From a bacterium (lineage in GTDB: Bacteria > UBA8248): 64,000 nt of DNA. Of this stretch, positions 36,001 through 60,000 are shown piece after piece (the stretch's first letter is position 1; every line of letters starts with the position of its first letter). A program made the position numbers. The DNA is taken from assembly GCA_965203325.1 (NCBI GenBank), contig OZ241875.1, positions 416,001 through 480,000 of the forward strand, given 5' to 3'.

Positions 36001-39000
36001 ACCATGGCGGCCGCCTCGCCCATCTGGGCCGGGTCCGCGCCGAAAAGCTGGATGGAGACCGGCTTTTCCGCCGCGTCGTTCCGCATGAGGTCGTAGGTCT
36101 TTTTGTGCCGCCGCACGAGGGCCTGGCTGCTCACCATCTCGGTGGCCACCATGCCTGCGCCGTGCGCCTTGACCAGCGTGCGGAAGGGCAGGTTCGTGTA
36201 GCCCGCCATGGGCGCCATGACGAGGCGATTCTCGAGCCTCACGCCGCCGACTTCCAGGGGCGAATCGAAACCCGCAGGCGGGGGTGGAACCTCCTCCAGA
36301 GACTCCTCGCATACGCTCGGGCCCGCTTCTTCGGGGCGCATCAGCTTATCCTCTTGAAACGGCTATCCATTCGACGCATCTCCCAACTCCCAGGAAGGGT
36401 CCGCATCCATGTCGGCGTAATCCATAAAACGCTCGCGTCCGCGTATTTTCAGCCGGAAACCCCCTGCGCAGGCAATCATCGCCGCGTTGTCCGTGCAGTA
36501 TTTGCGCGCGGGGAAATGGAGCGACCAGCCCTCCCGCTCCGCCCGTTCGGCGAGCTTCACCCGCAGATACGAGTTCGCGGCCACGCCCCCGCTCACGGAG
36601 ACGGCGGGCAGATTCTCCCGGCGGACCACCCCGCTCACCTTCTCCACCAGAACCTCCACCGCCGCTTCCTGAAAGCCCGCGGCCACGGCGCACGCCACCT
36701 CTTCGGGGACGTCCTGCGGACGCGCCCAAGGGGGGAGGTTCCTGTCGCTGAGATACAGCCCTCGTTCTTTCTGGTAGTTTAACACAGCCGTTTTCAACCC
36801 ACTAAAGCTGAAAGCGTAAGGTCTGTCCTCAAGAAACGGCCGGGGGAATACAACCGGAGCAGCACCGCTCCCGTTCGCTTCGAGAAACTTCGCATGAAGG
36901 CGATCGACGATGGGGCCGCCCGGATAGCCCAGTCCCATGATGGCCGCCACCTTGTCGTAGGCCTCGCCCAGGGCGTCATCCAGCGTGCCGCCCAGATGCG
37001 TGACTTCCGAATGTCCATCCACGCGGTAGAAATCCGTATGCCCGCCCGAGACCACGAAGCCCAGATGGGGAAACGGGGGCGGCGCATCGCTCCCGTCTTC
37101 CGCCGGCAGAAACAAGGAATGAACGTGGCCGTCGAGATGATGCACGCCGATGAGGGGAACGCCCAGGCTCCACGCCAGGCCCTTGGCGGCGGAGAGGCCC
37201 ACGAGCAGGGCCACCACAAGGCCGGGGCCGCGCGTGACCGCCACGGCGTCGACCTCTTTCGCCGAAACGGACGCCTCATCCAGAGCCGCCTCCAGCACGG
37301 GCGCTATCATCTCCACGTGGCGGCGCGCCGCGAGTTCGGGGACCACGCCGCCGTAGCGCGCATGAATCTCGTGCTGCGAGGCCACGACGTTCGAGAGGAC
37401 CTTCGGCGCGGAATCCTCGCCGAACTGCAGGACGGCCGCCGCCGTCTCGTCGCAACTCGTCTCCACGCCCAGGATATACACGTTCATGCTCCTCGCTTTG
37501 CGCAAACCTCATCAAACTCTGGTTCAAGTGGATACGGGAATTTTCGCGGGGAAGCAACGCCTATCCGAGCGGTAGGGGCGATTTGGAGAGTCTCTTCCCC
37601 TGAATAGAGGGGCGATCATGCGGACACACAAGTCCACTCCTGCGGCAGGGCCTGTCCCTAGGCAAAAAAATCGAAGGCCGGGATTCACTCCTTCTTTGGG
37701 ATTGTAGGGGCCGCATATATGCGGCCCGGCCTTTCCACCCTTACAATGTGGGTCGCATATATGCGGCCCCTACACCTGTATGTCGAGACCGAACCACAAC
37801 ACCGGAATAACTGAAGTCAATCTCAATCGATGAGGGATGGCTTGCTGAAACCGATTTTGCTCGTCTTAGAGACACGAGTAGTTCCGGGCAGTTCCGGTAA
37901 TCCCGTAAGGCACTGTAATAAGCTCTGTTATGAGCTTTTCGGGAATCCTCCCCGGCAGGCTCGCAATCAAAATGAAAGCGGATTGATTACAACTCCAAAG
38001 CATCCCGTCGCGCGCGAGTCGGGCCGGCTAGGGGTAAGCGTTTATCCAAGCCGTGATGGTAGTGCCTTGAAGCAGTAGTTTGTGCCGGGATGGGGGATGA
38101 TTTTACCGGTTGAGGATTTGCTTCCAGTTTCTGCGCAACGGTCGTAGCCAGATGTCCTTTTTCGGTTTGTTACGCTTCGTGTATCTGTCGTAGCGTCCAC
38201 GCCCCTGGGTCATGCCGACGTGAACCCACCCCAATGCCCTGTAGACGGCTCCGGTGTAGCGCGGCGTCTCGACGAAGGTCTCGACGAGGACGGGGGTCGT
38301 GCCATAGCGCTCGGTCCAGTCTCCGGGCAGGCGCCTGCGGATGATGGCGAGGAGGTGCGAGCCGAGGTTGGGGATCCTGATCCAGGGCAAGATGAGGAAC
38401 CTCGGGTTGTCGACCACGAGGGGGAGGTTCTTCTCGCGCAGTTGCGGCGTCCAGCCGATGAAGTCATCACGCGGGGCGAGCTTCCAGGCGGCGGTGGAGA
38501 AGCCGAGCATAGCGAGGGGCCTGCCGTCGCGGTCGTGGACGGCGTAGCGCATCTGCGCGCCGACGAGGGTCTTGTAGCCGAGGTAGTGGTAGCGGGCGAC
38601 GAACTCGTTCCAGAGCCTGCCCCTCGCGGGTTCCGCGCACGGCGACGCGCATATCGAGCGGTCGGACTTCGTTGAGGGCCTCAGGCGCCGGGATGAGGGG
38701 AGGTTCGGTGTCCGGTCCGAAGACAATCGGCCCGGGCCGGTTCTGGCTCCACTTCGGAGGCGGCAGCGTGATCAGGCCGTCCTTGTGCATGGCCAGCATG
38801 GTCACCCGGGCCATCATGTCCTTGAGTCCGCCGTCGGGCTTGTACCAGCCGATGCGGCGGCAGAACTCCTTCGATAGCGCATGGCGGTTGAGCGCAGGAG
38901 GACCGGCGATCAGTTCGCGCAGCAGCGCCATCTCTTCCGCCGTGAAGTCGCGTCCGTAGTAGCGGCACTCGGTCACGGCGTCAACCCGGCGCCATAAGGG

Positions 39001-57000: not shown

Positions 57001-60000
57001 TTCGCCGTCCCCGGCGTCGCGCGAAGGGCGTGCTGGAGCGCCGCGGCCTCCGCCTTGCCCACGTCCTCGAGGTTCATGGAACCCAGCGCCGGCAGGATAT
57101 GGTTGTCGAGCACGGAGCGGTACTTCGGCGCCGTGGACGGCTTGCAGCGGCTCGCGACGTACTCGCGCATGAAGCGTCCGGCCAGGTCCGCCACCGTGGG
57201 CGCGGGTTCAGCCTCTCCGGACAGGGGCTCCTCGCCCCGCCTGATCCGGTCGATGACGGGCGCTGCGCGTTTCCTGGCCTCATCGCACGAGAGCGCCCCG
57301 TGGCGCCCGAGCGTCACGCGCACAGGCCCCCTGGGTCCTCTCGACTGCACCACGTAGACCTTCCGGCCCGTTGCGTGCACCCGCACCCCGAAGCCCGCCA
57401 GGTCCCGGTCCCAGAATACGGCGTCCTTCTCCTTGACAGCGAGGGCGTCGACCGCGCGCTTGGTGAGCTTGAACTCGCTTCTTCTCGGCATGGTTCCTCC
57501 GGGAAATATGTAATCAAACCGCATACAAGCGGCGTCAAACGAGAGCGTATTCAGGCATAAATATGACGAAAACGCAAGAGGGGAAATTTGAAAGGTATGT
57601 TATTTAATCAAGTATTATCAGCTATTTACATCATCTAGGCGTAGTCAGTCGAACGATTGACATACCGGTCGATTTGAATTATATGTTTGCTCGTCATTCC
57701 GGCCTTAAGCCGGAATCCAGAGCCGATGGGGGTGCATAATTCCGGTAATTCGTTCCGTCTTTGAAATTGCGGGAACAAAAGCAATATCACCGAACAACCT
57801 CGCGGTTCTCACCAACATGCTACTGGATGACGAACGAATGAATAAGTCGCGTCAAAATGGACTGATATGCGTTGCCGCCTCAGGAAATCACTCGCCTGTC
57901 ATTGAGACAACAAGTGCTTCTTGAAGAATCGCACCACGTGATCGCGGGATTTGTGGGCCGCATCTTCATCCCATCTCATGATCCGGCCGCGCCGGTTGCG
58001 ATTCACCCCTATCTTGTCGAACCCGTGGTGCGCGCCTTCAAAGAAAATAACGGGCACGCTGTGGCTGTGCTGGAACTGAAAGCACTTGTCGGGGTCCACA
58101 TACGTGTCTGCGGTGCCCATCAGTATCAACATCGGAAGATTGTACAAACTCACCCTGTGGCTTCGCGCGCACCCGCCGTAGATTCCCACATGGGCGGCGA
58201 AGACCGGGCCGGGAGTCTTTTCCATATTCGCCATGCGAAACGCCACCGTGCCGCCGTAAGACCACCCCATGATCCCGACGCGCCCGCCATCCACGTCGGC
58301 GCGTTTGCGTATCCGCCGCGCGGCCTCCAACACCACCGGAATGTTGTCATCCGCCGGCGGTCGATCGCGGCGGCTCCTGAAGATGCCTGTCTTGGTGTCC
58401 AGGACGAACGTCCCTATCCCTGCGCGCAGCAAGTGCGGCCGGTAAAACGCCTGCCTCTGGTCAACCCCGGACGTTCCCGGAATCATGACCACCAGAGGGG
58501 CGGGGCCGGCCGCCTTCGGCAGGTGAAGCTCCGTGCCATACCGCCTGCCGTCAACGGTAATGACGCCGCGCTCGGTTGTAGCTCCATAGGCCGTCACGGG
58601 CATGAGCGCCGCCAGCGCCAGGCACACGATAAGCGAAAATAATCTGGGCATGGACATCCTCCGGATTATGTCTGATCGGGGCGTTTCACTGCTTCCAGGC
58701 GTTCGTCATTCCCTGGTTCGGGACGTAGCGGTAGATGTGATCCAGTCTGTCCCTGGACCAGTATTTGAACTCGATCTCTTCTAAATGGCCTTCAGCATCC
58801 AGGCCGACGTGGGTGATTTCCAGCGCAGTACCCTCACAGTCTTTCCTCGAGCGAATTTTCCATTCGCGCCCGGCCGGAAACTTGCATCTTCCGGTGTACC
58901 AATACTTCGGATAACGACTATCGTAGACTCTACCGATTCCGTCTTGATGACACGTGAAATACTGGACTTTGTAGCGAGTGATCTTCTCTCTCACCCATAC
59001 CAGTTCGTCTTCACCGGATTCGATATTGGACCACTTCTTAGGCCCCCATATCCTTGTCAATCCCCCGCCCTGGACGTCGAAAGTAGTGTCGGCCTTGTGC
59101 ATGCAGGGGCCTTCCTTGCGGCCGTCCCACTCAGCACCCGTCCAGAGTTGATAAGGCACGAACATCTTGCGGGTCCCGCAGTCATAGAGGTTTCCCACAT
59201 GCCATGGTGACGAACTCGGCGGGTAGCCCGCGCAGGCGAGCTTGTGGAAGCTGTCCGCCGTCGTCTCTTCGTTCCAGGCCCATGCCGGCGTAAAGATACC
59301 AAGGGAAAACACGACCGCCAGAATGAAAAGCGCTGCGATACGCAGGATGCTCATGTCTTCTCTCCTTTGATCAATCAAAAAACAATATGGTGGATGCTTA
59401 TCTCCGTCGGGAAGGCGCTCATGAACCAAGCCTGAATTCGCCTGGTGACGGCCCCCTTACGCATCCGCATCGCCGACGAAAATCGTTCAACTCATCAACG
59501 ATTGTCATGATCCTTCAAAATGATAGGCACGGACGCTCCACTAATTTTACGTATAGCCTCCGAAAGAATTGGGTCCCCCTCCTTTCAATTCAATCTGTAC
59601 GCACAGCGCCGAAAACACCTCGCAAACTATCGCGATTAAATTTGCCGGCCACACCCTGATGTTCTGTTCCGTAGAATGCGCCTTCAATTGTAGGTTGTCC
59701 CACCTGAGGGTCCCGGAATGCGCCCTTCTCGAGCTGAAGCGCCCGCCAGGACATGTCGCTATGCCCCTCTCCAAAGTCCGTGAAATCGACATCAACCGTC
59801 GCGTCACCGAAATCGACTTCGAGTCGTGCCTTTCCGCTCACCGGCGTATAACCTCGCGGCCCCGTTTCAACCGCACGCACTTTTCCGGACCAGACGGCAG
59901 ACCCGGATACCGGATTACGTCCCGAAGGAGTTCCCTCGATACGTCCATATGGGGAATAGTAAGTCGTTGAATTGCCAGTGCTTGTGGTGTCCCGTTCAAT

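Follow-up and report, generated by a model that had tools for sequence, protein, structure and literature searches.

We analysed a window of 64 kb, in which position 1 corresponds to position 416,001 of contig OZ241875.1 and to which all coordinates refer, and found that 37866-57685 is a 19.8-kb integrative island. It is bounded by two plus-strand copies of a 10-bp direct repeat, TTTGCTCGTC, representing the attL core (37856-37865) and the attR core (57686-57695); these are the only two copies in the 64-kb window, and at least two matches arose in 3 of 100 shuffles. The genome contains five such islands, of which the other four (B-E) are 36-48 kb long. All five are flanked by the core TTTG(C/T)TCGTC, with the C/T variant agreeing between left and right in every case (5/5), and each has the same hairpin in its right flank. 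The conserved left arm (37866-38021) shares 75-81% nucleotide identity with the left ends of islands B-E and includes a sub-motif (37965-38021) that recurs at about a dozen other places. The conserved right arm (57525-57685) is 93-96% identical in islands B-E and ends on the same final base, which places the right end at 57685 instead of the 57684 given in an earlier note on this DNA. The 20-nt target hairpin, ATTCCGGC-N4-GCCGGAAT (57696-57715), abuts the right repeat, and a palindromic REP/MITE-like repeat of ~75 bp (37700-37775) lies outside the island, 90 bp to its left. A BLAST search with the left flank gave 103 matches in the genome, most of them at 37698-37778, and copies also occur in genus relatives. 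The direct repeats at both ends, the hairpin MITE beside them and the island family, with four sisters of matching arms, repeat and hairpin, are thus as first described. The core together with the start of the hairpin occurs at 27 sites in the genome; 5 are occupied by islands and 22 are unoccupied.

The recombinase module is located at the right end of the island on the minus strand, where the two overlapping tyrosine recombinase genes and the 75-aa HTH_17 gene reported previously were all found. Int1 (56325-57524) comprises Arm-DNA-bind_3, SAM-like and catalytic domains (Pfam) and shares 92-96% amino acid identity with the Int1 of islands B-E. Its paralogue Int2 (55276-56328; Pfam Phage_integrase, Arm-DNA-bind_3) overlaps it by 4 nt and is 48% identical. 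Int2 lacks 39 residues of the core-binding domain through an in-frame deletion, seen as 39-42 gap positions against all ten other Int2 copies of the genome and also in the alignment to Int1; it may still be functional because the catalytic residues and the reading frame are kept. The HTH_17 protein (54947-55174; Pfam HTH_17 E 2.6e-8), a likely excisionase or directionality factor, has a 96% copy adjoining Int2 of island E. Sequence matches also reveal an internal att-like site (54742-54886), a seam at which the homology with island E starts, and 54746-54886 matches three sites within island E at 73-91%.

A sup-type operon occupies the greater part of the island on the minus strand; the sup ('sponge symbiont ubiquitous PKS') cluster is treated in passages of PMC3908369, PMC4245539 and PMC9426513. 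The largest gene (42022-52428) encodes a 3468-aa mono-modular PKS with the order KS-AT-DH-MT-ER-KR-ACP-KS-AT, assigned from Pfam and motifs. The length and the domains of the order proposed earlier, KS-AT-DH-MT-ER-KR-KS-AT, were correct, but the integral ACP (PP-binding, residues 2520-2585) had been missed. The second AT has no serine, an absence seen in 19 of 19 aligned homologues. Beside the PKS lie a free-standing ACP (41707-41928; Pfam PP-binding E 2.4e-10), an Sfp/HetI-type phosphopantetheinyl transferase (PPTase, 40774-41520; Pfam ACPS and AASDHPPT_N, NCBIfam HetI partial match) and an alpha/beta hydrolase (39753-40667; Pfam Abhydrolase_6 E 7.9e-10) with a likely role in product release, followed by a displaced N-terminal fragment of an NCS2/xanthine-type, SupE-like permease (38981-39595; NCBIfam pbuX/ncs2 partial match). 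The free ACP, PPTase and hydrolase listed in the earlier note are therefore all present, and the sup-like make-up is real by gene content and domain set. The island operon is an intact second copy, and the domain set of the PKS suggests that it most likely makes methyl-branched fatty acids iteratively. Fieseler et al. in 2007 reportedly described the architecture of the sup cluster, supA-supE. The likeness of the cassette to that cluster lies in the PKS, which is small, mono-modular and of type I and has a methyltransferase as well as a complete reducing loop, in the separate ACP, PPTase and hydrolase, in the SupE-type permease, which is whole in the chromosomal copy and a fragment on the island, and in the occurrence in sponge metagenomes and MAGs of many phyla. 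In contrast, the island copy has no whole permease, lies inside an integrative island and is a mosaic of two sup-type lineages.

The island had been called a complete member of its family with the PKS cassette as its sole cargo, and neither description holds. The permease fragment is accompanied by three further ORFs. The first, a DUF4338/DruA-family ORF (38103-38726, minus strand; Pfam DruA E 5.4e-37, profile positions 63-226 of 297), has a weak PADLOC DruA match (E 1.8e-4) and a paralogue elsewhere in the genome with 81% nucleotide identity; it is probably truncated, a relic of an earlier, defence-type cargo. The other two, on the plus strand, are a 240-aa ORF with a HATPase_c_4 domain (52981-53703; Pfam E 2.8e-12), which has no NCBIfam or PADLOC match, and a called ORF of 209 aa (53926-54555) with no family match in Pfam, NCBIfam or PADLOC; the stretch 53116-54741 is without a counterpart in the sister islands. 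Besides the deletion in Int2, tblastn detects what is left of a backbone Calx-beta/cadherin gene, a frameshifted stretch of its final 78 residues (52874-53081, plus strand) that matches residues 729-806 of the 806-aa island B protein at ~73% in two frames, in a region with a ~265-bp repeat also present in the sister islands. No relaxase or coupling protein was found in the 37866-57685 island, and the left-end HTH_17 gene of the sister islands is missing. The caveat that the island lacks the relaxase backbone and may be a decayed copy was well placed: the island is a decayed, reduced and probably non-autonomous family member.

The sister islands show what the family carries at full length. A TrwC relaxase and a coupling protein were found in islands B and D, and no T4SS genes were recognised in the sister islands. 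Island C is missing at the orthologous site in G012, G010 and G031, with flank spacings of 299, 312 and 1,208 bp, that is, in all three relatives with both unique flanks among the five searched. The check for an empty site in relatives, named earlier as a gap, is hence answered for sister island C; for the 37866-57685 island, no exact empty site was found in the genus relatives examined, and the tsaD-to-hydrolase interval in relatives G010 and G011 holds 8.0 and 10.3 kb of other genes. No contig joined across the island and no circular junction occurred among the joints listed for the contigs of four metagenome runs, which have 74 further joints beyond that list. In the mechanism that we propose, the Int1/Int2 pair, as P4-like tyrosine integrases, and the small HTH_17 protein would insert the islands at TTTG(C/T)TCGTC, with the insertion core beside the hairpin within a dispersed REP-like repeat. 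The full-length sisters would additionally bring a TrwC relaxase, a TrwB-type coupling protein, SSB and defence cargo, and the family would represent integrative mobilizable islands of a Nitrospinota-labelled sponge symbiont, a label that rests on a protein at least 90% identical to DusB and on 8 of 8 named Int1 relatives. In the 37866-57685 copy, both arms and the integrase module are retained, the transfer genes and a portion of Int2 are gone, and the sup-type operon of PKS, ACP, PPTase, hydrolase and permease remnant would have taken the place of most of the backbone.

Several known systems share parts of this organisation. Integrative mobilizable elements show site-specific accretion with cis-mobilizable remnants, as in ICESt1/ICESt3-CIME. 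The islands here resemble them in having an integrase module at one end, att-core direct repeats, full-length copies with a MOBF-type relaxase and a coupling protein, att-like seams inside the element where blocks of cargo meet, and a derivative with its ends kept and its transfer genes lost. However, the present family has two tandem paralogous integrases instead of one and targets a dispersed REP-like hairpin repeat instead of a tRNA or housekeeping gene end, and T4SS genes were not recognised in its sister islands. The pks (colibactin) island and the yersiniabactin High Pathogenicity Island of Enterobacteriaceae, which use a single integrase and tRNA targets and carry NRPS-PKS hybrids within one bacterial family, likewise combine a PKS-type operon as cargo, a P4-like integrase and short flanking direct repeats; here, in contrast, the integrases are paired, the target is a REP and the PKS is of a fatty-acid type common to several phyla. 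The GInt islands of Bardaji et al. (2017), which are said to possess three integrases and a small protein, also carry paralogous tyrosine recombinase genes side by side at one end, whereas two recombinases and an HTH_17 protein as helper are present here. The filamentous Nf prophages at the dRS3 repeats of Neisseria similarly land at a hairpin repeat that is dispersed in many copies, but in our case a tyrosine integrase pair moves islands of 20-48 kb.

The chromosomal second copy, put at about 75% DNA identity in the earlier note, does exist, with a nucleotide identity of 73.2% in 5,549 aligned bp and of 65-67% elsewhere. At the protein level, the island PKS is 59% identical to this chromosomal copy, which is conserved in the genus. 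A PKS occurs in 10 of 22 genus relatives, all ten having only the chromosomal type (59-60% to the island PKS), and a search of 50 further genomes from the phylum found no island type. Judged from these comparisons, the island cassette is foreign to the genus and lineage. In a sliding comparison, the island PKS and the chromosomal copy are 44-74% identical as far as residue 2800 and 68, 72 and 77% identical beyond it, and the trees of the two gene parts disagree (FastTree, midpoint-rooted, without printed supports, two short rows being left out of the second tree). The free ACP shares 84.7% amino acid identity with the Longimicrobiales copy and 68% with the chromosomal one. The best non-self matches of the PPTase (69.6%, against at most 55% to other phyla) and of the permease fragment (86.7%, to the full permease) are both in the chromosomal sup operon, and the hydrolase shares 58.5% identity with the chromosomal copy and 63% with a Dadabacteria locus. 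By its sequence, the cassette is a mosaic of two sup-type lineages: the PKS 3' end, ACP, PPTase and permease would be of the Nitrospinota chromosomal type, and the first ~2800 PKS residues would be nearest the Acidimicrobiales and Dehalococcoidia types.

A segment restricted to PKS and ACP (41703-52430) is shared with the chromosome of G035, a genome labelled Longimicrobiales, at 96.19% nucleotide identity across 10,729 bp; counted in 10,728 bp, the differences amount to 402 mismatches and 3 indels. The limits of this segment lie 2 nt ahead of the PKS ATG and 4 nt past the ACP stop. In G035, PKS and ACP are situated between two TonB-receptor genes, and no integrase, PPTase or hydrolase was found within 10 kb. 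Three of the five G035 relatives searched, G071 among them, yielded no match at E<=1e-250, and the other two have only a 57-58% type; at this locus G071 has only a TonB-receptor gene in common (93%). Both PKS variants are found together in four sponge metagenome runs of four studies, where the indels agree, as do 10 of the 11 SNPs checked. The comparison directly documents a recent exchange of PKS and ACP between phyla with a co-resident Longimicrobiales bacterium: 96.2% nucleotide identity in 10.7 kb stands against 47% identity of the TsaD of the two genomes.

PKS and ACP most likely passed from the Nitrospinota-type cassette to Longimicrobiales, since a history common to the 3' end and its flanks (PPTase, permease) is seen on the Nitrospinota side only. 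In public assemblies, the 3466-aa form of Longimicrobiales type is the commoner, making up 8 of the 15 members in the 90% cluster, with contigs of 126 kb, 976 kb and 4.02 Mb among them. It is also the more abundant in the four runs, at 4 to 20 times the depth of the island-specific parts. This greater frequency would also fit the opposite direction, in which a Longimicrobiales PKS and ACP replaced an older Nitrospinota-type pair in the island sup operon by within-operon recombination, and the PPTase and hydrolase flanks of the island are indeed not in common with Longimicrobiales. We nevertheless consider such a replacement unlikely. The PKS 3' end (72-77%) and the ACP (68%) are as near the Nitrospinota chromosomal type as the PPTase outside the segment (69.6%), so that only in the island genome (G000) is the history unbroken across the boundary; in addition, the Longimicrobiales genome's own copy is 46-55% identical in that part, and none of its five searched relatives has the island type.

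Transfer from the Nitrospinota-type cassette does not in itself make the island the means of transport. The proposal that it is a vehicle for the spread of sup PKS genes among unrelated sponge symbionts draws on the position of the cassette inside a genuine island of a mobile family, the 96% identical PKS and ACP in another phylum, the relaxase and coupling protein on sister islands, and the occurrence of both organisms in the same sponge samples. Yet the shared DNA ends at the gene limits with no island sequence in common, no integrase adjoins the Longimicrobiales copy, and the eight named Int1 relatives among the 120 matches listed are all Nitrospinae/Nitrospinota. Int1 relatives at E<=1e-10 were absent from four genomes of other phyla including G035, a weak search with no positive control among the genomes, and PKS, PPTase, ACP and hydrolase genes from all 12 JGI metagenome loci with Int1 relatives. 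Moreover, the PKS-bearing genus relatives hold only the chromosomal type, the chromosomal copy of this genome is more than 250 kb from any integrase pair, and the 37866-57685 copy itself is decayed and has no transfer genes. The proposal is thus unsupported, and we regard carriage of sup genes between unrelated symbionts by the tandem-recombinase island as distinctly improbable. An assembly or binning artefact, with a chimeric join in the repeated PKS region, is scarcely credible: the repetitive nature of PKS genes and the co-occurrence of many variants in the samples speak for it, but each record is one long chromosome (4.39 and 4.02 Mb), the site differences and indels mean that the copies are not one molecule, a contig of run X15 spans 41002-41799 across the PPTase-ACP boundary without a difference, run X17 spans 41108-41799 with 9 differences, and the island-specific parts recur at >=99% in four runs of four studies.

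Taken as a whole, the locus is probably best explained as a reduced island holding a foreign mosaic cassette that was recently exchanged with Longimicrobiales. The role of the island is that of a landing pad, possibly also of a donor context, and not that of a demonstrated carrier.

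The island at window positions 37866-57685 (19.8 kb), in the Nitrospinota-labelled genome of a sponge symbiont, carries four biosynthetic genes assigned by Pfam on the reverse strand: a PKS of 3468 aa (42022-52428), a free ACP of 73 aa (41707-41928), a PPTase (40774-41520), and an alpha/beta hydrolase (39753-40667). Pfam gives the domain order of the PKS as KS-AT-DH-MT-ER-KR-ACP-KS-AT, including an integral ACP that the earlier note had overlooked. SupA, after the description by Fieseler in 2007, is said to be a mono-modular type I PKS with the order KS-AT-DH-MT-ER-KR-ACP and a further KS-AT. 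The sup gene set comprises a free ACP, a PPTase, a hydrolase, and a permease. The cassette agrees with this make-up, as claimed for it, in the mono-modular PKS order, the free ACP, the PPTase, and the hydrolase. The ACP, PPTase, and hydrolase are intact in the island, and the permease is represented by an N-terminal fragment only; a full-length permease is found in the chromosomal copy, the second sup-type operon of the same genome. PMC3908369 designates SupE a permease. None of the eight named proteins among the 120 matches listed carries the name SupA. Full-length relatives of the PKS with at least 50% identity occur in MAGs labelled Dehalococcoidia, Acidimicrobiales, Palauibacter, Dadabacteria, Alphaproteobacteria, and others, and relatives at 46% or lower occur in non-sponge bacteria. 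Directly 5' of the PKS start (52431-52630) lies a 17-bp tandem duplication (GAAGCCCTGCCTGAAGG, two copies), preceded by a very AT-rich stretch without counterpart in the Longimicrobiales locus described below.

A copy of this PKS with 95% protein identity is located on a 4.02-Mb chromosome labelled Longimicrobiales, and the DNA of the two loci is 96.2% identical over 10,729 bp (window 41703-52430), with 402 mismatches and three indels. The shared segment starts 2 nt before the PKS start codon and stops 4 nt past the ACP stop, and the flanks are unrelated. At its ends, 41703 and 52430, the non-coding flank is not common to both loci, and no repeat or scar was seen that could account for ends so precise. 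The TsaD proteins of the two genomes are only 47% identical, and the DusB of the island's genome falls into a 90% cluster with a protein named Nitrospinae/Nitrospinota. With 96% DNA identity, two complete chromosomes, and shared sponges, the match is the trace of a recent and nearly fresh cross-phylum transfer.

The co-occurrence of the two forms was observed in metagenomes. The left flank of the island was found in 20 runs, 12 of which are labelled sponge metagenome, and island-specific parts were found at 99% identity or higher in four runs from four studies; run X3 covers 53287-55280 with five differences and run X15 covers 39434-41799 with none. In the four runs, a PKS variant that differs by ~3% is 4 to 20 times deeper than the island-specific parts, and this variant agrees with the Longimicrobiales copy at the three indels and at 10 of 11 checked substitutions. 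An X15 contig spans 41002-41799 without a difference and thus bridges the segment boundary, which argues against a chimeric assembly.

In the Longimicrobiales chromosome, the PKS and ACP genes are situated between two TonB-receptor genes, with no integrase, PPTase, or hydrolase gene within 10 kb. The same genome also has its own PKS copy of the 56% type, and of five relatives searched, three are without a match at E<=1e-250, the other two having the 57-58% type. At this locus, the closest relative (G071) has only a receptor gene in common, at 93%, in an otherwise different neighbourhood. The PKS is therefore an extra copy in both host lineages. The reverse direction, with Longimicrobiales as the source, may apply, in that the Longimicrobiales-type 3466-aa form is more abundant and more widespread than the island form; against this, the history is unbroken across the ACP-PPTase boundary only in the island's genome, and we therefore favour a transfer of the Nitrospinota-type cassette into Longimicrobiales. 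Separately, a ~720-bp piece with a PIN-domain gene lies 3 kb upstream of the Longimicrobiales PKS (L030:6252-6973, coordinates of the fetched locus); it has a 98% repeat 8 kb away in the same genome and copies of 78-89% at other places in several relatives, and could represent a small mobile toxin module close to where the PKS was inserted.

The chromosomal copy (genome positions 2826350-2836264) is 59% identical to the island PKS over the first 2600 residues and belongs to a fuller operon, consisting of PKS, ACP, PPTase, permease, second ACP, and hydrolase genes, which adjoins two PhyH-type genes and a Rieske gene. PKS genes were found in 10 of 22 other genomes of the genus, each 57-60% identical to the island copy. 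Across the 51 genomes of the phylum that were searched, the PKS is confined to this genus, and the island type occurs only in the genome studied here. On this sequence basis, the cassette is foreign to the lineage. The identity between the island PKS and the chromosomal copy runs at 44-74% up to residue 2800 and then at 68, 72, and 77%, while other phyla drop to 33-56% beyond the same residue. The best non-self matches of the ACP, PPTase, and permease fragment are likewise the chromosomal versions, at 68%, 69.6%, and 86.7%, respectively; KS1 is closest to Acidimicrobiales and Dehalococcoidia loci, at 81%. Trees of PKS residues 1-2600 and 2950-3468 (FastTree, midpoint-rooted, without printed supports, the second minus two short rows) conflict in the same sense as the identity profile. 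The island PKS gene thus reads as a mosaic.

The single reducing module with its C-methyltransferase would be used iteratively, which fits the methyl-branched fatty acids proposed as Sup products in PMC4245539; such acids are probably what the island PKS makes. In KS2, the Cys and the two His residues are retained. The second AT, in the region of PKS residues ~2600-3468 (window 42022-44628), has no active-site serine (GAGSG instead of GHSxG), and this serine is missing in all 19 aligned homologues from several phyla. Because the loss is general and the KS2 Cys is kept, the AT at the end of these PKSs would seem to be a pseudo-enzyme conserved throughout the family. AT1 probably supplies both carrier proteins, which the PPTase would activate, and the hydrolase would release the product.

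Two copies of the repeat TTTGCTCGTC lie in the window (37856-37865 and 57686-57695), a number reached in 3 of 100 shuffles. Searching the whole genome, a single 4.39-Mb contig, we found four sister islands (B-E) of 36.2, 41.9, 44.4, and 47.5 kb, which are 93-96% identical to this island over the right 1.7 kb and 75-81% over the left 140-156 bp. The homology stops at identical bases in all five islands, each of which lies between two copies of one variant of the repeat, either TTTGCTCGTC or TTTGTTCGTC, and a hairpin, ATTCCGGC-N4-GCCGGAAT, always directly follows the right repeat. The island ends and direct repeats proposed in the earlier note are borne out by these shared end points, repeats, and hairpins. 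The target core (TTTGYTCGTC) with the hairpin start is present at 27 genome sites, five of which are island right junctions and 22 of which are unoccupied. The 'gcggtgcggt' context seen where islands C, D, and E have their left junctions also stands before many of the unoccupied sites; since the unoccupied targets match the context of the island junctions, the joined left and right flanks correspond to a normal copy of the dispersed repeat. With a site-specific recombinase and att-core direct repeats at both ends, the island has the recombination module and end structure of an integrative mobilizable or conjugative element.

The site of sister island C is empty in all three relatives, of five searched, that have both unique flanks on one contig, with flank spacings of 299, 312, and 1,208 bp, and the gap in the genus relative G012 contains the same hairpin. 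For the present island, an empty site, which the earlier note had not sought, was looked for in relatives and no clean one was found; the empty targets seen for it are paralogous ones. Housekeeping genes flank the island: the left flank, with dus and tsaD, occurs in 28 of 31 genomes searched (the source genome included), and the right flank, with a dienelactone-hydrolase-type gene, in 6 of 22 genus genomes. Where both flanks lie on one contig, the interval from tsaD to the hydrolase gene measures 8.0 kb in G010 and 10.3 kb in G011, two further genus relatives, with other genes inside; that of G010 holds two Na+/H+ exchanger genes, a TbpB-like gene, and two unoccupied target copies. Just right of the island, the window encodes a 1446-aa protein with TbpB_B_D (transferrin-binding-protein-type beta-barrel) domains on the reverse strand (59590-63930), and the TbpB-like gene in the G010 interval is smaller. 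In G012, the closest relative, another tandem-integrase pair (of the 66-75% type) lies ~10 kb beyond tsaD (L012:14450-16847), which makes the surroundings of tsaD look like an insertion hot spot of this family. No tRNA gene is present within the window. No joint across 37865/57686 or circular junction was found among the joints listed for contigs of four runs, a result that speaks neither for nor against excision.

At the right end of the island, Int1 (56325-57524) and Int2 (55276-56328), two tyrosine recombinases encoded on the reverse strand with a 4-nt gene overlap, are followed by a 75-aa HTH_17 protein on the same strand (54947-55174; all by Pfam). Int1 and Int2 are paralogues with 48% identity, and each contains Arm-DNA-bind_3 and a catalytic domain with the RHR-Y residues retained. 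The Int2 of this island has lost 39 core-binding-domain residues that are present in 10 of 10 other Int2 copies. The left HTH_17 gene, located 1-2.5 kb from the left end in islands B-E, is absent, no relaxase, coupling protein, or SSB gene was found in this island, which thus differs from an integrative mobilizable or conjugative element in its transfer genes, and the last 78 residues of a backbone Calx-beta gene persist as a frameshifted relic (52874-53081). The suspicion that the island, without a relaxase backbone, is a decayed copy is thus supported by Int2, the relic, and the lost HTH_17 gene; after these losses, the surviving backbone consists of a 156-bp left arm, the relic, and a 2.9-kb integrase module. 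Homology to island E restarts at 54742, within an att-like site, and island E has three such repeats. The PKS cassette is not the sole cargo, as had been stated, because four further ORFs or fragments accompany it: a DUF4338/DruA-family ORF, the permease fragment, a HATPase_c_4 ORF, and a 209-aa ORF. PADLOC and NCBIfam gave no function for the 240-aa, 209-aa, and 135-aa ORFs. In each of the four runs, contig depth over the DUF4338 ORF region (38443-39109) exceeds that of the adjoining parts by a factor of 5 to 30, indicating that closely similar copies are frequent in the sponge metagenomes concerned.

The genome contains 11 integrase pairs (five close, six at ~67%) and two remnants. A GInt consists of three tandem tyrosine recombinases and a small fourth protein, whereas each island end here has two recombinases in all 11 pairs, and identity with GInts was rejected. 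Islands B and D encode a TrwC relaxase, a TrwB-type coupling protein, SSB, YAcAr, DUF4326, and NikA-like proteins, as well as large cadherin/Calx-beta proteins, and the cargo of the family includes HepT, DUF5677, ResIII helicase, Mrr, DACNG/DACNH, HD-CE, and SIR2 genes. By Pfam, no VirB4-type or other secretion-system gene was recognized in the sisters, in which many ORFs are without hits and one island C ORF lay outside the scan; the family therefore seems to be mobilizable and not self-transmissible. In island B, a Cas9 gene of 988 aa with RuvC_III, HNH_4, and Cas9_a domains is followed by Cas1 (L017:1397-5249; genome 4244396-4248248), and the two would form a type II CRISPR-Cas module carried by a mobilizable island. 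Island E (L025:8510-17136, L026:9232-11829) encodes four ankyrin-repeat proteins of up to 865 aa, together with an FGE-sulfatase-type gene, a VWA protein, LpxR, a SIR2_2 protein, and a Mutator-family transposase, a content that is eukaryote-like and defence cargo.

The earlier note had regarded the island as a vehicle for the spread of sup PKS genes; nothing shows this, and the island DNA is not shared with the other phylum. All eight named Int1 relatives among the 120 matches listed are Nitrospinae/Nitrospinota, and a search of four genomes from other phyla, run without a positive control, gave no Int1 relative at E<=1e-10. In JGI metagenomes, we found 12 loci with Int1 relatives, seven of them tandem pairs at 53-72% identity; neither PKS genes nor the TTTGYTCGTC core appeared in any of the 12, several of which have short flanks. 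Among the closest relatives of the island PKS, P0002 is 82% identical, and P0061 (84%) lies on a 1.53-Mb contig together with two Int1 relatives; P0138-P0140 and P0152-P0159 stand for PPTase and hydrolase of the island type. It is plausible that the island served as a landing pad and donor context.

Sup genes dominate sponge PKS surveys according to PMC4245539 and PMC9426513, and the latter describes SUP-like clusters in MAGs of four phyla as "independent of bacterial taxonomy". Our literature search, supplements excluded, found no paper that places sup genes on a mobile element or dates a transfer. The locus supplies a first case of a sup-type operon in an integrative island, and it adds a recent cross-phylum transfer and evidence of gene mosaicism; with donor, recipient, boundaries, and co-occurrence defined, it opens the route of spread to testing. 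Apart from the PKS, the island family is notable in itself: it numbers about a dozen copies with paired integrases and a REP-hairpin target, and Cas9 and ankyrin-repeat proteins are among its cargo. A far bolder reading, which we consider improbable, is that the tandem-integrase islands are accretion platforms gathering large blocks at att-like seams in REP-anchored elements, and that sup PKS genes cross phyla between co-resident symbionts as exact gene-bounded cassettes, partly recombined domain by domain. If true, this would be an undescribed, integron-like shuffling of a 10-kb biosynthetic gene, and it could explain why sup genes are so extremely diverse and so ubiquitous in sponges.
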